Of a stretch of 37,596 nucleotides of DNA, positions 1 through 37,596 are shown in pieces. The notes beneath the pieces are model-generated. The model saw nothing but the letters and a program-made list of their open reading frames with translations. It did no database searches and was not told the DNA's origin. Within the stretch, counting starts at the first letter, position 1. Every line of letters starts with the position of its first letter. This DNA comes from a virus (lineage: Duplodnaviria; Heunggongvirae; Uroviricota; Caudoviricetes), in the IMG/VR virus record IMGVR_UViG_2558860170_000006; one strand, 5' to 3'. The translations under genes were made by a program, and so were the position numbers.

Positions 1-378
1 ATGGACGAACAGTGGGGCTATGTCGGGGCTAAATCGCGCCAGCGCTGGCTGTTTTACGCGTATGACAGTCTCCGGAAGACGGTTGTTGCGCACGTATTCG
101 GTGAACGCACTATGGCGACGCTGGGGCGTCTTATGAGCCTGCTGTCACCCTTTGACGTGGTGATATGGATGACGGATGGCTGGCCGCTGTATGAATCCCG
201 CCTGAAGGGAAAGCTGCACGTAATCAGCAAGCGATATACGCAGCGAATTGAGCGGCATAACCTGAATCTGAGGCAGCACCTGGCACGGCTGGGACGGAAG
301 TCGCTGTCGTTCTCAAAATCGGTGGAGCTGCATGACAAAGTCATCGGGCATTATCTGAACATAAAACACTATCAATAA
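1..378 (+). CDS. insB: IS1 transposase InsB, C-terminal part (partial at window edge)
   Basis: 125-aa ORF identical to the C-terminus of the InsB ORFs in the other two IS1 copies (…[42 protein letters not shown]…). Confidence 0.85.
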
Positions 379-393
379 GTTGGAGTCATTACC
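1..393 (+). mobile_element. IS1, 3' 393 bp (window starts inside the element)
   Basis: Ends with the IS1 terminal repeat ...CAATAAGTTGGAGTCATTACC at 372-393; sequence matches the two full 768-bp copies at 1929-2696 and 36041-36808. Confidence 0.9.
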
Positions 394-697
394 CGATATC
401 CTGCTGAGAACATAAACACCCACGGATCGAGGCGTACGCTATCATGTTGCTGTGCACCGCCCAGTTTATAATTGGCGATGGTATCGATATCCATGTACCA
501 CACTGACATGTTTTAAAAAATGCAATAAGACATTGTATCTGAAAGAAAAAACAGGATTTTGAGGCGCTTTTTTATACCGTTTTTCCGTGTTTTTAACTGC
601 CTGATTTTATTGAAATCTTTTTTAGTTTTGCAGAAAGGATTTTTTGCTCGATCGCTTTAATTTTATACATTCCTGATAACGGAAATTTTTTTGCCCG

Positions 698-1653: not shown

Positions 1654-1899
1654 TCAATAAATCCCATCATTGCGATCAACCTCATCCTTAACCATTGATG
1701 CGAGCAGTTCTTCCAGTTTCTGCGCTGACAGCTTTACCTGGTGATCTTCAGCATCTTCCCGGGCTATTGTGGTTCGCGCAGTGGCTGATTTTGCTGACAT
1801 CACCACAGGGGGCAGACGGACCATTGAACCATGGCCTCCGGAACAAATAAGGGCAAAAATAACAACCACTATCGAAAGCTCACAAACTAACCGCAGCAC
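1654..1899 (-). CDS. hypothetical small protein (start uncertain)
   Basis: 81-aa ORF convergent with rha; no recognisable motif; the N-terminal part overlaps the repeat-A hairpin, so the true start may be internal. Confidence 0.2.
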   Translation of the reverse strand: MLRLVCELSIVVVIFALICSGGHGSMVRLPPVVMSAKSATARTTIAREDAEDHQVKLSAQKLEELLASMVKDEVDRNDGIY

Positions 1900-1943
1900 G
1901 TTCCTGCATACGACGTGTCTGCGGCATAGGTAATGACTCCAAC

Positions 1944-2447
1944 TTATTGATAGTGTTTTATGTTCAGATAATGCCCGATGACTTTGTCATGCAGCTCCAC
2001 CGATTTTGAGAACGACAGCGACTTCCGTCCCAGCCGTGCCAGGTGCTGCCTCAGATTCAGGTTATGCCGCTCAATTCGCTGCGTATATCGCTTGCTGATT
2101 ACGTGCAGCTTTCCCTTCAGGCGGGATTCATACAGCGGCCAGCCATCCGTCATCCATATCACCACGTCAAAGGGTGACAGCAGGCTCATAAGACGCCCCA
2201 GCGTCGCCATAGTGCGTTCACCGAATACGTGCGCAACAACCGTCTTCCGGAGACTGTCATACGCGTAAAACAGCCAGCGCTGGCGCGATTTAGCCCCGAC
2301 ATAGCCCCACTGTTCGTCCATTTCCGCGCAGACGATGACGTCACTGCCCGGCTGTATGCGCGAGGTTACCGACTGCGGCCTGAGTTTTTTAAGTGACGTA
2401 AAATCGTGTTGAGGCCAACGCCCATAATGCGTGCAGTTGCCCGGCAT
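1944..2447 (-). CDS. insB: IS1 transposase InsB (made as InsAB' fusion by -1 frameshift)
   Basis: 167-aa ORF; canonical IS1 InsB sequence. Confidence 0.9.
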
Positions 2448-2641
2448 CCAACGCCATTCATGGCCATATCAATGATTTTCTGGTGCGTACCGGGTTGAGA
2501 AGCGGTGTAAGTGAACTGCAGTTGCCATGTTTTACGGCAGTGAGAGCAGAGATAGCGCTGATGTCCGGCAGTGCTTTTGCCGTTACGCACCACCCCGTCA
2601 GTAGCTGAACAGGAGGGACAGCTGATAGAAACAGAAGCCAC
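2366..2641 (-). CDS. insA: IS1 InsA
   Basis: 91-aa [46 protein letters not shown]…; zinc-finger InsA. Confidence 0.9.
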
Positions 2642-3007
2642 TGGAGCACCTCAAAAACACCATCATACACTAAATCAGTAAGTTGGCAGCATCACCTGCG
2701 GCATAATCCCAATGATTACTCCCTGACAGGATTTGCAGGCCACTCAATATCAGGTGCAGTTGATGTATCAACACGATTCAACAATACCCGATATTTATTC
2801 CATGCCTCCAGCAACGATCTTTCTTCCTCCGTTGCGATTTCCAGATCTACAGCATCCTGCAGTGGCGCAATATACTCACTAAATTCCTGGATGTAGAACT
2901 GTGTGGTGACGGTCTTCCAGCCATTCGGCTCCTGCTGTATCGAAGCATACTAGGCTATTTCAATATCGCTATGCTGCGGCAGCATTTAACCCCTTGTAAT
3001 TCATCGC

Positions 3008-3036
3008 CATAATTGATTTAATTCACAAATAAAACT
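3008..3036 (+). promoter_or_regulatory. candidate promoter for the methyltransferase gene (TTGATT, 17 bp, TATAAC)
   Basis: TTGATTTAATTCACAAATAAAACTATAAC immediately upstream of the ORF start. Confidence 0.25.
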
Positions 3037-3041
3037 ATAAC

Positions 3042-3710
3042 ATGGTGAAATCAATGAAAACAAACACAGATGATGGGGCTAAAATTTACACACCACTTAC
3101 CCTAAAGCTTTATGACTGGTGGGTTTTGGGAGTATCAAATCGGCTTGCATGGGGATGTCCTACAAAGGAACACCTTCTTCCACACTTTCTGGAACATTTA
3201 GGTAACAACCATCTGGATATTGGTGTTGGAACTGGGTTTTACCTTACTCACGTACCTGAGAGTAGTCTGATATCTTTAATGGATTTGAACGAAGCTAGCC
3301 TGAACGCGGCATCTACAAGGGCTGGGGAATCAAAAATTAAACATAAAATTAGCCATGATGTTTTTGAACCTTATCCCGCGGCGTTACATGGTCAATTTGA
3401 TTCCATTTCCATGTTTTACCTTCTTCACTGCCTGCCTGGAAATATATCTACAAAAAGCTGTGTAATACGCAATGCGGCGCAGGCCTTAACTGACGATGGA
3501 ACTCTATACGGAGCCACAATTCTTGGCGATGGAGTTGTGCACAATAGCTTCGGTCAAAAACTGATGCGCATTTACAATCAGAAAGGCATCTTTTCAAACA
3601 CAAAAGATTCCGAAGAAGGCTTAACACATATACTCTCAGAGCATTTCGAGAATGTTAAAACCAGGGTTCAAGGTACTGTAGTAATGTTTTCCGCTTCAGG
3701 GAAAAAATAG
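3042..3710 (+). CDS. class I SAM-dependent methyltransferase, substrate unknown
   Basis: 222-aa ORF with glycine-rich SAM-binding motif I (LDIGVGTGFY); AT-rich codon usage relative to the flanking phage genes; followed by a long hairpin 3718-3750. Confidence 0.6.
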   Translation: MVKSMKTNTDDGAKIYTPLTLKLYDWWVLGVSNRLAWGCPTKEHLLPHFLEHLGNNHLDIGVGTGFYLTHVPESSLISLMDLNEASLNAASTRAGESKIKHKISHDVFEPYPAALHGQFDSISMFYLLHCLPGNISTKSCVIRNAAQALTDDGTLYGATILGDGVVHNSFGQKLMRIYNQKGIFSNTKDSEEGLTHILSEHFENVKTRVQGTVVMFSASGKK

Positions 3711-3715
3711 CATCC

Positions 3716-3860
3716 AACCGCAGCACGTTCTTGCTTAAGACGTGCTGCGGCATAATCCCAATGATTACTCCCTGACAGGGTTCGTAGGCCACTCAATATC
3801 AGGTGCAGTTGATGTATCAACACGGTTCAGCAACACCCGATACTTTTTCTAGGCTTCCAC
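3716..3860 (+). repeat. direct repeat copy B (~140 bp), begins with a near-perfect long hairpin
   Basis: CCGCAGCACGTTCTTGCTTAAGACGTGCTGCGG hairpin (3718-3750) then CATAATCCCAATGATTACTCCCTGACAGG…; matches copy A; its distal part overlaps the decayed pin reading frame. Confidence 0.6.
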
Positions 3861-4115
3861 CACCAGCACGACAAGATGCCGCATACAGTGACCCAGTCAG
3901 TCCAGTTTTCAGACAACCAGTGCGTCACCTTTTTGAAGGCGCTTTAAAGCACGTTTTAATCCAGGTCGGCCTGTCCTTGTTCCGCTTAATTTATCTTCAA
4001 ATATTTGTTCATATCCTGCACAAACAAGAGCGTTTCGTTGCAGGTCTGTATTCTGGTCATTTGTTGATACCCTTACATAGCCAATCAGCACGCTGAATCT
4101 CCCGTCCAAAAGCAC
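3780..4115 (-). pseudogene. pin: Pin/Gin/Hin-family serine DNA invertase, decayed
   Basis: N-terminal 68 codons intact (…LIGYVRVSTNDQNTDLQRNALVCAGYEQIFEDKLSGTRTGRPGLKRALKRLQKGDALVV) then TGA; the same frame continues with recognisable invertase residues (KLD*LG…) and further stops; no intact catalytic or HTH C-terminus. A GTG at 4091 aligns with the usual MLIGYVRV start. Confidence 0.7.
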
Positions 4116-4145
4116 AAATCATGCCATGCAGGCCAGAAACCGCCA

Positions 4146-4171
4146 TTATCTAAAACCTCGGTTTACGAGAA
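4146..4171 (+). other. invertase recombination site (gix/pix-like), proximal
   Basis: TTATCTAAAACC-TC-GGTTTACGAGAA, 26 bp with a central TC dinucleotide, as I recall the gix consensus; lies between pin and the alternative fibre segment. Confidence 0.7.
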
Positions 4172-5080
4172 CTCGGCACAAGCGGGGAGAAAATACCGTT
4201 ACTCAGTACAGCGAATACCTGGACTAATCGACAAACATTCAGCGGTGGCCTTTCTGGTGAACTATCCGGCAATGCTTCTACAGCTGCAAAATTAAAAACT
4301 GCCAGGAAAATAAGCAATGTGGCTTTTGATGGTTCCTCCGATATCACATTAAAAGCAAGTCATGTTGGTGCGTTTGCCTTAGGGAAAACAGGAAGCACCG
4401 TTGCGAATGATAAAGCAGTTGGATGGAACTGGAGTAGCGGAGCCTATAACGCAACTATTAGTGGTGCATCAACGTTAATTATTCATTTTTATATGGGAGA
4501 AGGAAGTTGTCCTGCAGCTCAGTTTCGGATTAATTATAAAAATGGCGGTATTTTTTATCGTTCAGCCCGTGATGGTTATGGTTTTGAAGCCGACTGGTCC
4601 GAATTTTACACCACCAGAAAACCTTCAGCAGGAGATGTTGGTGCACTGCCGTTATCTGGTGGTCAACTGAATGGTGCACTGGGTATCGGAACATCCAGTG
4701 CTCTTGGCGGTAATTCGATTGTATTGGGTGATAATGACACGGGCTTTAAACAAAAAGGCGATGGTAATCTGGATGTTTATGCTAATAACGTCCATGTTAT
4801 GCGCTTTGTCTCCGGAAGCATTCAAAGTAATAAAACCATAAATATTACGGGACGTGTTAATCCCTCGGATTACGGTAACTTTGATTCCCGCTATGTGAGA
4901 GATGTCAGACTTGGCACACGAGTTGTTTAGACCATGAAGAAAGGCGTGATGTATGAAAAATCAGGCCATGTAATCACGGGGCTTGGTATTATCGGTGAAG
5001 TCGATGGTGATGATCCGGCAGTATTCAGACCAATACAAAAGTTAATTAACGGAACATGGTATAACGTATCGCAGGTATAA
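4160..5080 (+). pseudogene. alternative tail-fibre C-terminal segment (Sv') with in-frame amber codon
   Basis: Frame is open from the recombination-site centre; shares [12 protein letters not shown](K/R)Q.GDG and the C-terminal [12 protein letters not shown] with the stf C-terminus; in-frame TAG at 4928-4930 splits it into 4319-4930 and a 48-codon tail. Confidence 0.6.
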
Positions 5081-5082
5081 TC

Positions 5083-5616
5083 ATGCAGCATTTAAAAAAC
5101 ATTGTCGCAGGTAATCCAAAAACCGTTGAACAATACCAGCTAACAAAGAATTTTGATGTTATCTGGTTATGGTCCGAAGATGGAAAAAATTGGCATGAGG
5201 AATTAAAAAACTTTCAGGAGGATACAATAAAACTGGCTTACACAGTTGAGGGAATAATTATTGCTATAGACAAGGATGTATCAGCAATTAATCCAGAAGG
5301 TTTAAGTGTCGTTGAGTTGCCTGATATTACAGCAAATCGCCGGGCTGATATTTCGGGCAACTGGATGTTCAAAGATGGTGCGGTGATAAAGCGAACTTAT
5401 ACCGAGGAAGAGCAAAGGCAACAAGCGGAAAATGAAAAGCAGAGCCTGCTGCAGCTCGTCAGGGATAAAACCCAGCTGTGGGACTCTCAGCTACAGCTGG
5501 GCATCATTTCCGATGAGAATAAACAAAAATTAACCGAGTGGATGCTCTATGCGCAGAAGGTTGAATCCACAGACACCTCCAGCCTGCCAGTAACGTTTCC
5601 CGAACAACCAGAATGA
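5083..5616 (+). CDS. tfa: tail fibre assembly protein (alternative-orientation copy, Tfa')
   Basis: 177-aa [17 protein letters not shown]…, paralogous to the minus-strand Tfa ([14 protein letters not shown]…). Confidence 0.8.
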
Positions 5617-5619
5617 GAG

Positions 5620-5648
5620 AAGGCCCGCTATCGGGCCTTAATTTTTAT
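5620..5648. terminator. bidirectional hairpin terminator between the convergent tfa genes
   Basis: AAGGCCCGCTATCGGGCCTT followed by ATTTTTATT; A/T-rich on both sides. Confidence 0.5.
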
Positions 5649-6172
5649 TCAGGCTTTTGTGGCCATTCAGGATTTGCCGTATCCACACGGCTGACCAGAA
5701 CACTGTAGCGTTCCCATGCTTCCAGTCGTGTGCGTTCCTCGTCTGTTGCCATATTCAGCCTGACAGCGCGTTCCAGCGGCTGGATGACTGATTCAGCTTC
5801 GGAAAGCAATGCGGCCTTTTGTGATTCGGCCTGTTGTTGCAGTTCCTGTTCTGTATATTCCCTCTTTACTACTTTACCATCCAGAAACATCCATTTTCCG
5901 TTATTGTCTGCGTGACGATTTGCCGTAATATCAGGAACTTCAACTATGCTTAGCCCTTCAGGATTAATAGTTGAAACGTCTTTACTGACAGCAACGATGA
6001 TGTTGTTCTCATCGTAAGCAATTTTTATGGTGTCTGGCTGAAAATTCTTTTGTTCCTCATACCAGTTTTTGCCATCTTCGCAAAAGAGCCATACCACGCC
6101 CGCTTTTTTAGTTAGCTGGTATTGTTCCGGTGTTTTCGGATTCCCGGCCTTAATATTTTTCAGGTGCATCAT
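5645..6172 (-). CDS. tfa: tail fibre assembly protein Tfa (expressed orientation)
   Basis: Start ATG at 6170-6172, 1 nt after the stf stop; TfaE/Tfa-family sequence. Confidence 0.8.
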
Positions 6173-6173
6173 C

Positions 6174-8930
6174 TTAAACACTCCCCACGTTGTACCATAT
6201 TCCCCCAATCAATTTCTGAATTGGCCTTCTGGCAACAGTGTCGACAATATCATCCGCATTGCTGTTAATTGCGGCTGTTAAAACATAACCTGACGCATCG
6301 CCAAAGCCGTAGTCGCGCCATACGTTTTTATATTCAATGCTGCCAAGACGAATATCCCGAACGACATGATTATGCAGCCATGTGCTTAACCAGTTGTTTT
6401 CCCACACTGAACCATAAATATCGCCACTAGACGCAACTTGCGCACCACTTCCCAGCGCAAATCCCCCATCTGTTTTAAAAATGAAATCACCACCACCATC
6501 TGAACCGTTATTAATATGAACACCATCACCACCGTTATCTTTCCACAAAAACATACGAATTCTTCCGTCTTCGTTGGCGAATGTAATGTGGTGGCGGTAA
6601 TTACTTTTTAATCTAAAATTGCTGCCATTAGATTCAATATCTTTATAAAGATGTAATCCTAACTCATCAATATGTCCGATGCGCGAACCATTTGAATAGA
6701 AGCTAATAATACCATCTCCATCTTGCCTAAATCCGGTGTCGTTATCTCCCAGAACAATGGAGTTTTCACCCAGTGCGTTATCAGTAGCTCCAATAGCTAG
6801 ACCTCCTTTAATTTTGGCCCCGTGGCTGACAGATATAGCACCTGTTCTCAGATTTATAGCGAATGGCCTTAATGGGCCGATATTACCGTTTTCGCCTTGT
6901 CCTTCAGCCGTCGGAATGAAATGAAGAAAATCTTCTGAACGACGGAAAATTAGACCGAAGGTATCATTGAAAATTCGCAGCGCATTCACCGTGCCAATTT
7001 TCAGTTCTCCGGTCATTTTATCGCCGGAACGCTGAACGGCGTTACCAGCCTTGTTTACCGTTTCCTGTAAACCGAGGTATTCGATAACGGCAGCAACGGT
7101 CGATTTCGCAAGAATATCCCGCCCGACTTTTGTCAGGGTTGCCAGGCTGGCGACATCATTCCCCGTAAAATACGGAAACTTGCCTGCCGCAGTAGTAAGT
7201 CCGGCCAGCGCCGTCAGGGTGGCATCTTTCGGTTGCTTACCCGCAAGCGCGTTAGTCATGGTGGTCGCAAAATTCGGGTCGTTGCCCAGCGCCGCAGCCA
7301 GCTCGTTCAGCGTGTTCAGTGCATCAGGTGACGAATCTACAAGGGCGGCAATCGCAGCCATAACGAAAGCCGTGCTTGCGATTTGGGTATTATTCGTTCC
7401 CTGTCGCGCAGTTGGTGTTGTTGGCGTTCCGGTCAGTGCAGGACTATTTAAGGGCGCTTTCTTGTTCGTTTCACCCATTACCGCCTTAACCGCTTTTGGC
7501 GTTGCCGCCAGTGACTCGGAAGTGCTGTTGGTCGCACTGCTGAGCTGTACTATCCCCTTTTTCGTCGTGCTCGCATCCTCCAGCGCCACGGCGGATGCAA
7601 TATCCTCTGCCCGTTTTGCTGCTGTCTCGGCGCGCGTTGCCGCGGATTCAGCAGCAACTTTGCTCTGAGATGCAGCCGTCGCACTGCCTGCCGCCTCTGA
7701 TGCTTTCGTTGTTGCTGTCGTGGCACTACCTTTCGCTGCTGACGCTTGTCTGGTCGCCTCATCTTTTGAAGCAGACGCAGATGATGCCGATGACGCCGCT
7801 GAACTGGCTGACGATGCGGCTGCTGCCTTAGAGGAAGCAGCATTGTCTGCTGAAGTCTTTGCATTTGTTTCAGAGGTTTTTGCTGCAGAAGCAGACCTCG
7901 CTGCTGCAGTGGCTTGCTCAGTGGCTTTGCCAGCCTTCGTTGTGGCTGTTGAAGCGGATGATGCGGCGCTTTCTGCCGATTTTCCGGCGGCGGTGGCACT
8001 GGCTGAGGCCTGCCCGGCACTTGTTGACGCGGCACTGGCAGATAATGCAGCCGCTGTTTTTGAACCTGCCGCAGCTGAGGCGCTCTGTCCCGCTGCTGTT
8101 TCAGAAGACTTAGCGTTCGTCTCGGACGTTTTTGCCGCCTTCGCGGAATTTCCTGCCGCCGTTGCCGAGGAAGCTGCACTACTGGCACTTGATGATGCAT
8201 TCGTTTCTGAAGATTTCGCTGCCTCTTTTGAGGCCGCCGCACCCCGTGCCGAGGTGGCAGCTTCTGACGCCTTCGTGGTCGCTGTGGATGCAGAAGTGGC
8301 TGCCGATTTTTGTGATGCTGCGGCATTCGTTTCTGACGTTTTCGCGGCACTGGCGCTGGTAGCTGCCGCGCTTTTTGATGACTCTGCAGCAGCACTTTTT
8401 GCTGCTTCACGGGCCTTTGTCGATGCCGTTCCTGCGCTGGAAGACGCTGACTGAGCCGACGACGCGGCCTGTCCGGCTGACGTGCTGGCGGCACGTGCTG
8501 AGGCTGCAGCATCGGTTGCATGAGTTGCCGCCTCGCTGGCTGATTTTTTCGCGGCTGCCGTATTCTGTGCAACCGCGGAGGCGTTACGTGACACCTCTTC
8601 CACCATCTGCTCAAAGCGGCGCAGTGCCTCCGGTCGGACATCATCCTCCGTCATGGCACCGAGAAAATCATTCAGCGTACCTGGTCTGGAACCTTCATAG
8701 ACGGTAATGGTCCCGGCATGTGAAGGCGGAAAACCTTCAACCAGCAGGGTGACGCTGTACTGACCATGCTCAACATCCATGCTGTAACGTCCGGCTTCAT
8801 CCGGATTTTCAGAGGCCACCGTGTTCACCACCATCGTGCTGCTGGTTCGTCTGGCCTTCAGCACAATGGTGCAGTTCTGTACTGGTTTTCCTGTGCCATC
8901 TTTAAGCACGCCAGAAATTTTTACTGTCAT
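6174..8930 (-). CDS. stf: side tail fibre protein Stf
   Basis: 918-aa ORF; N-terminus [30 protein letters not shown]… Stf-like; long Ala/Ser/Thr-rich repeat region; C-terminal variable part lies inside the invertible segment. Confidence 0.85.
7062..7087 (-). other. invertase recombination site (gix/pix-like), distal, inside stf
   Basis: Minus strand reads TTATCGAATACC-TC-GGTTTACAGGAA, inverted relative to 4146-4171; encodes EYLGLQE in the stf frame, in the same phase as the proximal site. Confidence 0.7.
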
Positions 8931-21256: not shown

Positions 21257-22429
21257 ATGCTGAGCAGAGAGGACTTTTACATGATAAAGCAAATGCGCCA
21301 GCAGGGCGCGTACATCGTCGATATTGCGACTCAGATTGGTTGCTCTGAACGGACGGTCAGACGCTACCTCAAATACCCTGAACCGCCAGCCAGAAAGACC
21401 CGCCACAAAATGGTTAAGCTGAAACCGTTTATGGATTACATCGACATGCGCCTGGCAGAGAATGTCTGGAATAGCGAGGTTATCTTCGCGGAGATTAAGG
21501 CAATGTGTTATACGGGCGGACGTTCCATGCTGCGTTACTACATCCAGCCCAAACGTAAAATGCGTCCGTCAAAAAGAACAGTTCGCTTCGAAACTCAGCC
21601 TGGATACCAGCTCCAGCATGACTGGGGCGAAGTTGAGGTGGAGGTTGCCGGGCAACGGTGCAAAGTTAACTTTGCGGTTAATACGCTGGGGTTCTCCCGC
21701 AGCTTCCATGTCTTCGCCGCACCAAAACAGGATGCTGAGCATACCTACGAATCACTGGTTCGCGCCTTCCGCTACTTCGGTGGTTGTGTGAAAACGGTGC
21801 TGGTTGATAACCAGAAGGCTGCGGTGCTGAAGAATAACAACGGGAAAGTCGTGTTCAACTCCGGATTCCTGTTGCTGGCTGACCACTATAACTTCCTGCC
21901 ACGGGCATGCCGTCCACGCAGGGCCAGAACAAAAGGTAAGGTTGAGCGGATGGTGAAATACCTCAAGGAGAACTTCTTCGTCCGGTACCGCAGGTTCGAC
22001 AGCTTCACTCATGTCAATCAACAACTGGAGCAATGGATAGCCGATGTGGCTGACAAACGGGAGCTTCGCCAGTTCAAAGAAACGCCGGAACAGCGCTTCG
22101 CGCTGGAGCAGGAACATCTGCAGCCGTTACCGGATACAGACTTCGATACCAGTTACTTCGATATCCGCCATGTGTCCTGGGACAGCTATATCGAGGTTGG
22201 TGGTAATCGTTACAGCGTTCCCGAAGCGCTGTGTGGTCAGCCGGTATCGATACGAATATCGCTGGATGACGAGTTGCGGATCTACAGTAATGAGAAACTG
22301 GTGGCCTCACATCGCCTCTGTTCAGCATCGTCTGGCTGGCAGACAGTGCCGGAGCATCACGCCCCGCTCTGGCAGCAGGTCAGTCAGGTGGAACATCGAC
22401 CACTGAGTGCCTATGAGGAGCTGTTGTGA
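21257..22429 (+). CDS. istA: IS21-family transposase IstA
   Basis: 390-aa ORF with N-terminal HTH and DDE region (…QLQHDWGEVEV…VLVDNQKAAV…TKGKVERMVKYLK…). Confidence 0.9.
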   Translation: MLSREDFYMIKQMRQQGAYIVDIATQIGCSERTVRRYLKYPEPPARKTRHKMVKLKPFMDYIDMRLAENVWNSEVIFAEIKAMCYTGGRSMLRYYIQPKRKMRPSKRTVRFETQPGYQLQHDWGEVEVEVAGQRCKVNFAVNTLGFSRSFHVFAAPKQDAEHTYESLVRAFRYFGGCVKTVLVDNQKAAVLKNNNGKVVFNSGFLLLADHYNFLPRACRPRRARTKGKVERMVKYLKENFFVRYRRFDSFTHVNQQLEQWIADVADKRELRQFKETPEQRFALEQEHLQPLPDTDFDTSYFDIRHVSWDSYIEVGGNRYSVPEALCGQPVSIRISLDDELRIYSNEKLVASHRLCSASSGWQTVPEHHAPLWQQVSQVEHRPLSAYEELL

Positions 22430-22975: not shown

Positions 22976-23039
22976 TGAGGTAGCCTGAGTTTAACGGACA
23001 CTCCTTCCTGAAATAGAATGGCATCAGAAGGAGCTAATA

Positions 23040-23342
23040 ATGAGCAGAAAAACCCAACGTTACTCTAAAGAGTTCAAAGCCGAAGCTGTCAGAACGGTTC
23101 TTGAAAATCAACTTTCGATCAGTGAAGGCGCTTCCCGATTATCTCTTCCTGAAGGCACTTTAGGACAATGGGTTACCGCCGCCAGAAAAGGGCTCGGTAC
23201 TCCTGGTTCCCGCACGGTGGCTGAACTGGAATCTGAAATTCTGCAACTGCGTAAGGCGTTAAATGAAGCTCGCCTTGAGCGAGATATATTAAAAAAAGCA
23301 ACAGCGTATTTTGCACAGGAGTCGCTGAAAAATACGCGTTAA
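23040..23342 (+). CDS. IS600 OrfA
   Basis: 100-aa ORF MSRKTQRYSKEFKAEAVRTVLENQLSISEGASRLSLPEGTLGQWV…; A-run (AAAAAAAG) near its 3' end fits an IS3-type -1 frameshift into orfB. Confidence 0.9.
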   Translation: MSRKTQRYSKEFKAEAVRTVLENQLSISEGASRLSLPEGTLGQWVTAARKGLGTPGSRTVAELESEILQLRKALNEARLERDILKKATAYFAQESLKNTR

Positions 23343-23377
23343 TCGAACAATGGCGACAACAATTTCCCATTGAAGCG

Positions 23378-24196
23378 ATGTGTCAGGTATTTGGTGTATC
23401 CAGGAGCGGTTATTACAACTGGGTACAGCATGAACCCTCAGACAGAAAACAAAGTGATGAGCGGCTAAAACTGGAGATTAAGGTGGCACATATCCGCACT
23501 CGCGAAACATATGGAACCCGGCGGCTCCAGACGGAGCTGGCAGAGAATGGCATCATCGTTGGTCGTGACCGACTGGCACGTCTTCGTAAGGAGCTAAGGC
23601 TACGCTGTAAGCAGAAACGCAAGTTCAGAGCGACTACGAACTCGAACCACAATCTGCCAGTTGCGCCAAATCTGCTGAACCAGACGTTCGCTCCTACAGC
23701 ACCAAATCAGGTCTGGGTGGCGGACCTGACGTATGTTGCCACACAGGAGGGATGGTTGTACCTCGCTGGCATCAAAGATGTTTATACGTGCGAAATTGTC
23801 GGCTACGCCATGGGAGAGCGCATGACAAAAGAGCTGACAGGTAAAGCCCTGTTTATGGCGCTCAGGAGCCAGCGCCCACCTGCCGGGCTAATCCACCACT
23901 CTGATCGAGGTTCACAGTACTGCGCATACGATTACCGGGTCATACAGGAGCAGTCTGGTCTGAAAACATCAATGTCGCGTAAAGGTAACTGTTACGACAA
24001 CGCTCCGATGGAAAGCTTCTGGGGAACGCTGAAAAATGAGAGCCTGAGCCACTATCGTTTTAATAACCGGGATGAAGCCATCTCAGTAATACGGGAATAC
24101 ATTGAGATTTTCTACAATCGTCAGCGTCGTCACTCTCGTCTGGGGAATATCTCCCCGGCAGCCTTCAGGGAAAAATATCATCAGATGGCTGCTTAA
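23378..24196 (+). CDS. IS600 OrfB (DDE transposase catalytic part)
   Basis: 272-aa ORF with IS3-family DDE integrase-like sequence (…VWVADLTYV…HHSDRGSQY…YDNAPMESFWGTLK…). Confidence 0.9.
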   Translation: MCQVFGVSRSGYYNWVQHEPSDRKQSDERLKLEIKVAHIRTRETYGTRRLQTELAENGIIVGRDRLARLRKELRLRCKQKRKFRATTNSNHNLPVAPNLLNQTFAPTAPNQVWVADLTYVATQEGWLYLAGIKDVYTCEIVGYAMGERMTKELTGKALFMALRSQRPPAGLIHHSDRGSQYCAYDYRVIQEQSGLKTSMSRKGNCYDNAPMESFWGTLKNESLSHYRFNNRDEAISVIREYIEIFYNRQRRHSRLGNISPAAFREKYHQMAA

Positions 24197-24335
24197 AAAA
24201 AGAACAAATGGTAGTGTCCGCTATTGCCAGTACACCTCAGTTAGTCAGCTTCTTATCGAACTTGAGCTGAAGGATCTTAAAACAAGTTTCCATAGTGCTC
24301 CTGGATTTTCTCTTTTTGGACATTGACGTCTCCAC

Positions 24336-37235: not shown

Positions 37236-37596
37236 AGCCTGAGTTTAACGGACACTCCTTCCTGAAATAGAATGGCATCAGAAGGAGCTAATAATGAGCA
37301 GAAAAACCCAACGTTACTCTAAAGAGTTCAAAGCCGAAGCTGTCAGAACGGTTCTTGAAAATCAACTTTCGATCAGTGAAGGCGCTTCCCGATTATCTCT
37401 TCCTGAAGGCACTTTAGGACAATGGGTTACCGCCGCCAGAAAAGGGCTCGGTACTCCTGGTTCCCGCACGGTGGCTGAACTGGAATCTGAAATTCTGCAA
37501 CTGCGTAAGGCGTTAAATGAAGCTCGCCTTGAGCGAGATATATTAAAAAAAGCAACAGCGTATTTTGCACAGGAGTCGCTGAAAAATACGCGTTAA
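37230..37596 (+). mobile_element. IS600, 5' 367 bp (runs off the window end)
   Basis: Begins TGAGGTAGCCTGAGTTTAACGGACACTCC…, as in the other two copies. Confidence 0.9.
37294..37596 (+). CDS. IS600 OrfA
   Basis: 100-aa ORF identical to the copy at 23040-23342. Confidence 0.9.
   Translation: MSRKTQRYSKEFKAEAVRTVLENQLSISEGASRLSLPEGTLGQWVTAARKGLGTPGSRTVAELESEILQLRKALNEARLERDILKKATAYFAQESLKNTR

Follow-up and report, generated by a model that had tools for sequence, protein, structure and literature searches.

The locus described here raises the question of whether an AT-rich methyltransferase gene, lying between two direct repeats next to a broken DNA invertase gene, is a mobile cassette that inserted into a prophage. 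The window, meaning the whole stretch of DNA analyzed, is 37,596 nucleotides long and comes from a member of the Caudoviricetes (IMG/VR record IMGVR_UViG_2558860170_000006). Judging from its homologies, the region very probably corresponds to the tfa-ybcY-tfaX module of lambdoid prophages, which occupies the cargo slot that extends from the end of the late (tail-fibre) operon to the prophage end. This module is already known, and the locus appears to be an ordinary copy of it, not a new mobile cassette. The features that bear on this reading are the following:

1860-1924, plus strand: hairpin A (1891-1924) with its preceding box, a degraded lambdoid box (..CACTATCGAAAGCTCAC..) upstream
2716-2985, minus strand: tfaX, the 3' end (~90 codons) of a tail-fibre-assembly (tfa) gene, with one internal stop
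3054-3710, plus strand: ybcY, class I SAM-dependent methyltransferase, 218 aa (PHROG 2132)
3718-3750: hairpin B, between the convergent genes ybcY and tfa
3765-3862, minus strand: 3' fragment of tfa (repeat copy B), 32 codons; the tfa homology stops at 3862

The initial annotation reported direct repeats of about 90% identity, each beginning with a hairpin, and we recovered the same structure. The two pieces of copy A (1889-1917 and 2696-2813) match those of copy B (3716-3744 and 3745-3862), each at 90% identity. When the IS1 that splits copy A is removed, a single direct repeat of ~147 nt is obtained, in which the right arm of hairpin A differs by a 1-nt indel. On the minus strand, these repeats correspond to the final 28-60 codons of two tfa genes plus the hairpin. 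Copy A covers the last ~60 codons of tfaX, while the tfa fragment in copy B shares 99% identity, as far as position 3859, with the full-length tfa of phage PhiR26_1. The translated repeats match Tfa of lambda, TfaD, and Tfa of PhiR26_1, and both repeats are annotated as tail-fibre-assembly pseudogenes in EC958. Both are also matched by the Rfam model IS009, which scores 110.8 bits on tfaX and 217.7 bits on the coding sequence of lambda tfa; IS009 itself is in fact tfa coding sequence. Chance cannot explain the repeats, the IS1 duplication, the open reading frame, the hairpins, the contact of copy B with pin, or the composition.

We regard the repeats as the coding 3' ends of two paralogous tfa genes and not as cassette ends or attachment sites. 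Their earlier interpretation as the brackets of a cassette does not hold, as tfa coding ends followed by the hairpin are also present in lambda, HK97, and phi80, which have no methyltransferase. It had been anticipated that the repeats might turn out to be ordinary pin-flanking sequence in prophages devoid of the methyltransferase; they are indeed ordinary flanking sequence in such prophages, but the gene that they flank is tfa, not pin. Near prophage tail fibres, a repeat-bracketed 'cassette' can thus be two tfa ends with a shared, putative terminator hairpin, and such repeats should not be taken for insertion scars.

Window positions 2739-3862 share 97% nucleotide identity with tfaD-ybcY-tfaX of prophage DLP12 in E. 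coli K-12, where the gene order, the orientations, and the ybcY promoter hexamers are as in the window. The two loci differ in several respects: ybcY (b0562) is a frameshifted pseudogene in K-12 and intact in the window; tfaD is nearly full length in K-12, whereas its counterpart in the window was reduced to 32 codons by a joint with a pin remnant (pin'); and the K-12 tfaX has a different distal end, with neither hairpin A nor an IS1 at the locus. The K-12 pseudogene indicates that loss of ybcY is tolerated. Positions 2761-3859 are 99.3% identical to the viable phages PhiR26_1 and ev243 (98-99% across the module), and the YbcY protein is 98.6% identical to the viable-phage version. In PhiR26_1, ev243, and 2G7b, the genes are ordered stf - tfa - ybcY - tfaX - hydrolase - ompT. 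Unlike the window, these phages have a full-length, functional tfa, no pin remnant, and no IS1, and their sequence distal to tfaX is different, PhiR26_1 being without hairpin A. An arrangement identical to ours, except that IS1 is absent, was found in EC958. Among 5426 complete E. coli genomes, 3836 (~70%) encode a ybcY with at least 95% identity, and the arrangement including pin' is present in 1526. These comparisons establish the anatomy, the homologies, and the distribution of the module. The locus itself is of little weight, as the module is annotated in K-12 and present in most E. coli genomes.

The initial annotation suggested another origin, in which Campbell-type integration of a small, methyltransferase-bearing circle into the invertase region created the flanking repeats. 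Direct repeats of ~147 nt do flank ybcY, pin' adjoins copy B, and the observed topology would follow if a circular DNA with a tfa 3' end underwent one homologous crossover with a resident tfa. We nevertheless consider this origin very unlikely. The same module lies beside a full-length tfa, with no neighbouring pin, in DLP12, PhiR26_1, and ev243; the invertase region was therefore not its point of entry, and this part of the proposal is already largely refuted. Moreover, the repeats are coding tfa ends that are also present in phages without ybcY, the two copies diverge by 10%, and the distal end of copy A varies between lineages, hairpin A being missing from PhiR26_1 and K-12. A search of the ybcY unit for the marks of a site-specific cassette found no recombinase, no att- or attC-like core, and a distal boundary that is not constant. 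The second tfa end would rather have come from recombination between different lambdoid phages, through mosaic joints, than from a target duplication, a local duplication being the other candidate.

Copy B does run into a decayed pin gene, as was first described. Both the contact and the truncation were confirmed, but their reading as a duplication or Campbell-type insertion was not, since the joint is a separate event. Two more features are involved:

3863-4091, minus strand: pin', a Pin/Gin-type serine invertase gene reduced to its N-terminal ~77 codons and containing two in-frame stops
4146-4171: crossover site of the tail-fibre invertible segment, TTATCTAAAACCTCGGTTTACGAGAA

The pin' sequence is fused to the tfa fragment at 3862/3863, and the alignment with an intact 200-aa pin allele begins at position 3901. 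A prophage located at the lambda att site has the same pin'::tfa' junction, and its cargo is a MASE4-GGDEF (diguanylate cyclase) gene, not ybcY. The joint is thus an event separate from the ybcY module, which also argues against the Campbell-type origin. From these sequence comparisons, the pin-tfa contact is a secondary, illegitimate joint that linked pin, at codon ~77, with the final 32 codons of tfa and left the invertible segment frozen.

The neighbouring segment at 4146-7091 resembles the Pin/Gin/Cin systems (e14 pinE, P2-like prophages, and the Mu G segment): its two tfa genes are oppositely oriented, the fibre has alternative C-termini, and a crossover site is accompanied by an outward-reading pin gene. 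It differs from them in that the invertase is cut at about codon 77 and contains two stops, and in that the second crossover site is degenerate. Indeed, the inverted partner of the 4146-4171 site, located at 7062-7091, is just 83% complementary, and a search for a second perfect Pin crossover site did not find one. With a truncated, stop-containing invertase and a degenerate partner site, this is not a functional Pin/Gin inversion switch, and it is separate from the methyltransferase unit.

The interruption of copy A comprises the following features:

1920-1928: left target-site duplication of IS1, TGCGGCATA, in the right arm of hairpin A
1929-2696, minus strand: complete IS1, 768 bp, with insA (2366-2641) and insB' (1944-2447), both on the minus strand
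2697-2705: right target-site duplication, TGCGGCATA, a perfect 9-bp match to the left copy

The complete IS1 and the perfect 9-bp duplication reported in copy A are therefore both real: the element is exactly 768 bp long, has normal terminal inverted repeats, and shows every feature expected of an IS1. It is 99.9-100% identical to two further IS1 copies in the window. The IS load of the prophage amounts to three IS1 and three copies of a 1264-bp IS, and may point to a genome of the Shigella type. The same sequence is found without IS1 in E. coli ST131 and many other genomes, so the repeat predates the IS1, as had been proposed. None of the complete E. coli and species-representative genomes searched has an IS1 at this exact site. 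The pin-tfa joint came first and IS1 second; in this later event, IS1 entered the stem of hairpin A.

The hairpin that begins each repeat is a conserved lambdoid element that separates the late operon from convergent cargo genes. Hairpin B starts 7 nt past the ybcY stop codon, and 14 nt separate its other end from the tfa stop codon, which is on the opposite strand; it is thus placed between two convergent genes. The RNA folding z-scores were -4.9 (plus strand) and -4.4 (minus strand) for hairpin B, and -4.0 and -2.6, respectively, for hairpin A. In the hairpin alignment, 92.9% of the cells were paired, with compensatory changes at three pairs, and the Rfam model of the CssrB sRNA terminates in the same hairpin. 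The hairpin follows tfa in lambda, HK97, phi80, and others, all without a methyltransferase, and marks the tail-fibre/cargo boundary in HK97, phi80, mEp460, HK75, 2H10, SKA5, and an Stx2 phage. The interval from the tfa stop codon to the hairpin is a recurrent lambdoid cargo slot, in which the convergent gene is dinI (phi80, mEp460, 2H10, and SKA5), ea47 (lambda), ybcY (the window), or a diguanylate cyclase gene. In lambda, ea47 is bracketed by two copies of the hairpin, one directly following tfa and the other at 24.16 kb. This b region (tfa - hairpin - ea47 - hairpin) has a homologous hairpin at an identical 14-nt distance from the tfa stop codon and, as in the window, a second hairpin beyond a convergent non-essential gene; unlike the window, its cargo is ea47 and no tfa fragment precedes the second hairpin.

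We infer that the hairpin either terminates both convergent transcripts or stabilises their 3' ends. In other phages, TTTT follows the hairpin on the plus strand; in the window, a U tract is absent on the ybcY (plus) strand and weak or displaced on the tfa (minus) strand, and a terminator scan flagged hairpin A on the minus strand only. The conserved box before hairpin A corresponds to the 3'UTR and terminator of the convergent dinI in other phages; its sequence, sought in published papers, gave no match. A small plus-strand protein encoded by the hairpin and box (..RSTFLHTTC..) was also considered and was rejected, as the box lies past the dinI stop codon in the dinI phages.

The 222-aa class I methyltransferase predicted by the initial annotation was confirmed by the open frame at 3042-3710 on the plus strand, with an annotated start at 3042, and by Pfam profile matches. 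Residue M5 is the start in 31/31 aligned homologues, and a Shine-Dalgarno-like GGTGA (3044-3048) lies 5 nt upstream of the ATG at 3054; together, these point to ATG 3054 as the probable true start, giving a protein of 218 aa. The product passed the Pfam gathering scores of Methyltransf_12 (37.6 bits, cut-off 30), _23, _25, and _11, and matched phrog_2132 over residues 1-218 of 218 (E 8.7e-156). Across 32 homologues, neither SAM motif I (D59-x-G61-x-G63-T-G65) nor the acidic residue that closes strand 2 (D81) varies. The seven-stranded Rossmann-like fold is present, and the AF2 model shows a single 218-aa domain with a pLDDT of 89.6. Family-specific motifs include an N-terminal YDWWVL..SN..AW.C.T, HCLPG, and YNxKGIFSN. 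Across homologues down to 56% identity, 58 residues are invariant, which indicates purifying selection on the family. YbcY is a very common, phage-borne, and strongly conserved methyltransferase. The AT-rich composition first reported was borne out, with a G+C content of 41.4% for ybcY (GC3 35.6%) vs 51.6% for the window; the neighbouring tail-fibre invertible segment is likewise low (43.8%).

The gene is preceded by its own upstream region:

2986-3053, plus strand: ybcY upstream region, with two sigma-70-like candidates and the Shine-Dalgarno-like GGTGA

The first candidate is TTAACC-16-CATAAT (2986-3013) and the second is TTGATT-17-TATAAC (3013-3041), whose hexamers are those listed for the K-12 ybcY promoter. 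In the catalogue of Shimada et al. 2014 (PMC3946193), the K-12 ybcY/tfaX spacer has a constitutive sigma-70 promoter, TTGATT-17-TATAAC, together with H-NS, both RNA polymerase holoenzyme and H-NS binding there in vitro. As the -10 element of this candidate ends at 3041, an mRNA translated from 3054 would be nearly leaderless, and the promoter assignment is uncertain. The H-NS binding in K-12 suggests that ybcY may be largely silent.

The earlier view of ybcY as prophage cargo of the moron type, located at the tail-fibre end, is supported. Morons, in Hendrix's concept, are the lysogenic-conversion cargo of lambdoid phages. On this model, ybcY would be a monocistronic moron on the opposite strand, with ~55 nt of its own upstream sequence containing sigma-70-like hexamers, and would be expressed as such in this strain. 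Like morons, it is a single gene at the end of the late operon, with promoter-like and terminator-like signals (the latter being hairpin B), a deviant G+C content, and a patchy presence among related phages: lambda and HK97 are without it, while PhiR26_1 and ev243 carry it. The gene could instead be inert in this strain, a silenced and drifting passenger of a decaying, IS-ridden prophage remnant. Indeed, the prophage is degraded, with a truncated pin, a stop in tfaX, and the IS copies mentioned above; moreover, the K-12 promoter region is bound by H-NS and the K-12 allele is a pseudogene. Such inertness nonetheless seems rather unlikely given an intact ORF with 98% identity to a cluster of 6589 sequences, near-identical alleles in the 3836 genomes and on viable phages, and the purifying selection on the family.

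The initial annotation assigned no substrate to YbcY, and in this it was right. The best profile matches among PDB entries were JHAMT (9e-6) and UbiG (1e-3); together with a bacterial PE N-methyltransferase (8ys9), JHAMT (7ebs/7ec0) and UbiG (4kdr/5dpm) are the best profile and fold matches. These enzymes share the class I Rossmann-like fold, the SAM motifs, and the size of YbcY, but the identity is just 15-22% and many unrelated enzymes score equally. The nearest solved relatives act on small, often lipophilic molecules. NCBIfam profiles matched YbcY only far below threshold (CpaM 17 bits and RquA 17 bits), and PADLOC returned one weak, non-significant match.

DNA methyltransferases are frequent in phages, and the motifs of YbcY indicate SAM binding; the protein might therefore methylate DNA on behalf of the phage, shielding phage or host DNA from restriction or playing an epigenetic role. 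We hold this to be extremely improbable. No DNA-methyltransferase family was found among the Pfam or NCBIfam matches, the Pfam matches being all generic small-molecule-type domains, and neither the (D/N/S)PP(Y/F) nor the PC motif was found in the YbcY alignment. The 218-aa protein has no target-recognition domain, its closest solved structures are small-molecule or lipid methyltransferases, and its homologues are encoded singly on chromosomes, without a restriction partner. The same prophage also encodes a separate methyltransferase ORF with a DPPY motif at 28434-29492. YbcY thus resembles small-molecule methyltransferases, often with lipophilic substrates, and not DNA methyltransferases.

By this resemblance, YbcY would methylate a small metabolite or lipid of the lysogen, in a form of lysogenic conversion, and not DNA. 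The intact ORF, the strong family conservation, and JHAMT, UbiG, and PE N-methyltransferase as nearest solved relatives allow for a stronger version, namely a true lysogenic-conversion enzyme that acts on a lipophilic host molecule and alters the envelope or metabolic properties of the lysogen, with candidate targets such as a membrane lipid head group, a quinone/isoprenoid intermediate, or an exogenous toxin. We view this specific version as quite unlikely; if it were true, a phage-spread methyltransferase in ~70% of E. coli would alter the envelope or metabolism of lysogens.

The neighbourhoods of nine homologues (56-79% identity) from Salmonella, Enterobacter, Yersinia, Erwinia, Klebsiella, and Pasteurellaceae represented nine unrelated contexts, in which the gene was always monocistronic, and gave no functional clue. 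An esterase/methyltransferase pair, considered because of alpha/beta hydrolases in three contexts, was rejected, as the hydrolases are not homologous (BLASTP E 0.87). Literature searches with ybcY, tfaX, b0562, and the RefSeq accession yielded gene lists and a promoter catalogue only, with no functional study. With its frameshifted ybcY, K-12 offers a natural null background for tests of YbcY.

The two direct repeats flanking the methyltransferase gene ybcY are the ends of tail-fibre-assembly (tfa) genes. The first repeat, copy A (1889-1917 and 2696-2813), matches copy B (3716-3744 and 3745-3862) with 90% identity for each piece, as the initial annotation had described. Both repeats are coding on the minus strand, and their translations, compared with the C-termini of lambda Tfa and K-12 TfaD, are those of tail-fibre-assembly proteins. 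The same sequence is found without the IS1 in E. coli EC958, where RefSeq calls both repeats tail-fibre-assembly pseudogene fragments. The Rfam model IS009 matches both repeats and reaches 217.7 bits when run on the coding sequence of lambda tfa; IS009 is therefore tfa coding sequence. The proposal that the repeats are the ends of a mobile cassette was not borne out, as both are ordinary tfa gene ends plus a hairpin, and, judging from the sequence, there is no mobile cassette at this locus. The features of the unit and the insertion sequences of the window are as follows.

1891-1924: hairpin A, strong, first part of copy A
1920-1928 and 2697-2705: 9-bp target duplication TGCGGCATA of the IS1 in copy A
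1929-2696: IS1 in copy A, exactly 768 bp, with normal terminal inverted repeats
3042-3710, plus strand: ybcY open reading frame
3718-3750: hairpin B, strong, first part of copy B
1-393, 1929-2696 and 36041-36808: the three IS1 copies, 99.9-100% identical
22976-24239, 34315-35578 and 37230-37596: three copies of a 1264-bp IS3-family element
21257-22429: IS21-type istA-like ORF

The long hairpin reported at the beginning of each repeat is present, and so is the complete IS1 in copy A, with a perfect duplication on both sides. No IS1 was found at this exact site among complete E. coli genomes or species-representative genomes, so its insertion into hairpin A is, from this comparison, recent and lineage-specific. 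The abundance of insertion sequences in the window is suggestive of a Shigella-like genome.

The tfa-ybcY-tfaX locus (tfaX being the tfa fragment with copy A) is already known. Prophage DLP12 of K-12 MG1655 carries tfaD (+), ybcY (-; pseudogene b0562) and tfaX (+), 97% identical to window 2739-3862. Phage PhiR26_1, in a note on which the methyltransferase is called YbcY, has the order J, lom, stf, full-length tfa, ybcY (opposite strand), tfaX, hydrolase and ompT; its identity to window 2761-3859 is 99.3%. YbcY is found at 98% identity in viable lambdoid phages, including PhiR26_1, ev243, 2G7b, Kati and Turner. The gene (at least 95% identity) occurs in 3836/5426 complete E. coli genomes, in up to four copies.

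Since the two copies are 10% divergent, tfaX distal to window 2761 differs in K-12, PhiR26_1 and ev243 (all three without hairpin A), tfaX starts merely ~55 nt before the ybcY start, and the ybcY unit contains no recombinase or att-like core, the arrangement is consistent with mosaic joining of different lambdoid phages, in which the tfa-hairpin-ybcY of one phage would have been fused to the interior of another's tfa. Alternatively, the tfa ends may have been duplicated by a single homologous crossover or locally. In this lineage, the tfa-ybcY-tfaX module was first assembled in a lambdoid phage, pin was then fused to the 3' end of tfa, and IS1 entered hairpin A last. Overall, the first reading holds for the moron-type cargo methyltransferase and fails for the mechanism.

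Copy B runs into a decayed pin frame, as initially noted: the minus strand past it encodes the N-terminal part of a resolvase/invertase (pin'). The intact 200-aa pin of a P2-like prophage aligns to window 3901-4680 (96%), and the frame runs to 3863 with two in-frame stops, changing to tfa at VVLVVEA/*KKYRVLLN. The same joint between pin' and the 3' tfa fragment (tfa') is found in E. coli 13C1065T (window 3778-4166, 97%), within a prophage that occupies the lambda att site. Past the final tfa codons, that prophage carries a MASE4-GGDEF diguanylate cyclase gene (2498-3829 of the 13C1065T locus, L012) and, after it, the hairpin element. The cyclase gene takes the place, between the pin'::tfa' joint and the element, that ybcY has in the window. 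This slot, held by ybcY or a diguanylate cyclase, points to a recurrent cargo site of lambdoid prophages. Because the joint also adjoins the MASE4-GGDEF cargo, it is, on this comparison, an independent, older illegitimate recombination unrelated to the arrival of ybcY. The ybcY module occurs in DLP12 and phages, and the joint occurs with other cargo, which rules out the proposed insertion of a circular element at the invertase region. The ybcY version joined to pin' is present in 1526 of 5426 complete E. coli genomes. Beyond pin' lies a frozen tail-fibre inversion segment.

4146-7091: tail-fibre inversion segment
4146-4171: intact crossover site
7062-7091: inverted, degenerate crossover partner, within the 918-aa fibre gene
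4319-4930, plus strand: alternative fibre C-terminus
5083-5616, plus strand, and 5645-6208, minus strand: opposed tfa genes

Within the 918-aa tail-fibre gene, a stretch of Ala/Ser-rich repeats (7613-8374, plus strand) gave weak Rfam isrG matches of 19-27 bits, far under the gathering score; an isrG sRNA was rejected there, the match being almost certainly coding-sequence similarity.

A hairpin homologous to those of the window lies 14 nt past the tfa stop codon in lambda, the same distance as in the window, with compensatory changes in the stem. A further lambda copy lies at 24161-24199, so that the pair encloses ea47, and the lambda order of tfa, hairpin, ea47 (non-essential, opposite strand) and hairpin is like the window's tfa, hairpin B, ybcY, (tfaX) and hairpin A. 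Further instances are in HK97, phi80, mEp460, HK75, 2H10, SKA5, Stx phages and the 13C1065T prophage, and in all of them the hairpin separates the final late gene (for a tail fibre, Tfa or an invertase) from whatever follows. An alignment of 12 hairpins, with 92.9% of cells paired and both-sided changes in three pairs, speaks modestly, yet consistently, for conservation of the structure.

On the plus strand, a conserved ~100-nt element, GTAAAATCGG...CACTATCGAAAGTTCACCAGCC-hairpin-TTTT, with GTAAAATCGGTAACGGCTGGAAATCATTCAATACTCGCACTATCGAAAGTTCACCAGCC ahead of the hairpin, has the hairpin as its 3' end; CACTATCGAAAGCTCAC, left of hairpin A, is a degraded copy. In phi80, mEp460, 2H10 and SKA5 the element lies past the stop codon of convergent dinI and is therefore the dinI 3'UTR and terminator; lambda, HK97 and the 13C1065T prophage keep it without dinI.

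Window 1860-1924 and 3718-3750: element copies
13C1065T locus (L012) 2120-2245: element copy
HK97 locus (L015) 3447-3550: element copy
K-12 locus (L029) 3001-3100: element copy, unannotated, between ecpE and ykgJ, with two compensatory changes in the stem

The element was found in 5381/5426 E. coli genomes (median 2 copies, maximum 9). Its fold, a 5' stem and a terminator, resembles a 3'UTR-derived sRNA, and its strand matched no Rfam family. On the minus strand, the Rfam model of CssrB, a Shigella sRNA, ends exactly in hairpin B, a hint that RNA 3' ends are made at this site. On the ybcY strand a canonical U tract is absent from both window hairpins, and we therefore only infer that they act as terminators.

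The AT-rich methyltransferase ORF was likewise upheld: its protein exceeds the Pfam gathering thresholds for four generic class I methyltransferase domains, and its G+C content is 41.4% vs 51.6% for the window, the adjoining tail-fibre segment also being low (43.8%). All 31 homologues begin at the fifth codon of the 222-aa ORF and GGTGA stands 5 nt before that ATG, so the true start is probably 3054, giving 218 aa. YbcY matches PHROG 2132 (annotated function unknown) over its full length, and its family has 2296 matches in Enterobacterales and beyond. The homologues are monocistronic, and their surroundings, whether chromosomal, island or prophage-end, are unrelated. Across 32 sequences, with identity down to 56%, 58 residues are invariant, among them the SAM motif DxGxGTG, D81, D106 and the motifs YDWWVL..SN..AW.C.T, YLLHCLPG and YNxKGIFSN, which are specific to the family. 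AF2 gave a confident model (pLDDT 89.6), the top matches in a profile search of PDB sequences were JHAMT (9e-6) and UbiG (1e-3), and Pfam, NCBIfam and the 32-sequence alignment revealed no DNA-methyltransferase signature. We conclude that YbcY is a predicted small-molecule methyltransferase, possibly with a lipophilic substrate. A second methyltransferase ORF, in the prophage early region (28434-29492, minus strand), has the TDPPYF motif, a DNA N6-A/N4-C methyltransferase signature, and, unlike ybcY, is a candidate true DNA methyltransferase.

For the K-12 ybcY/tfaX spacer, Shimada et al. 2014 (PMC3946193) catalogue TTGATT-17-TATAAC as a constitutive sigma-70 promoter, along with an H-NS site. 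This sequence is found at window 3013-3041, and a second candidate, TTAACC-16-CATAAT, at 2986-3013. Our literature search turned up no work on the function of ybcY. Within tfaX, ~70 nt 5' of the ybcY start, positions 2969-2983 form a perfect 15-nt palindrome, ATGCTGCGGCAGCAT, which may be an operator or a chance occurrence.

The prophage end carries a P1/P7-type immunity module (721-1527) near an ompW remnant.

721-773: c4-a1b1 target
734-808: isrK, 72 bits
832-919: C4 antisense RNA, 76 bits
955-1527: Rha/anti-repressor gene, directly downstream of these RNAs
372-509, minus strand: ompW C-terminal remnant (..DPWVFMFSAGYRV), marking the prophage/chromosome junction

The EC958 copy of this prophage is flanked by trpA and an ompW fragment. 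In the window the ompW remnant is cut by another IS1, the copy at 1-393, which extends past the window start.
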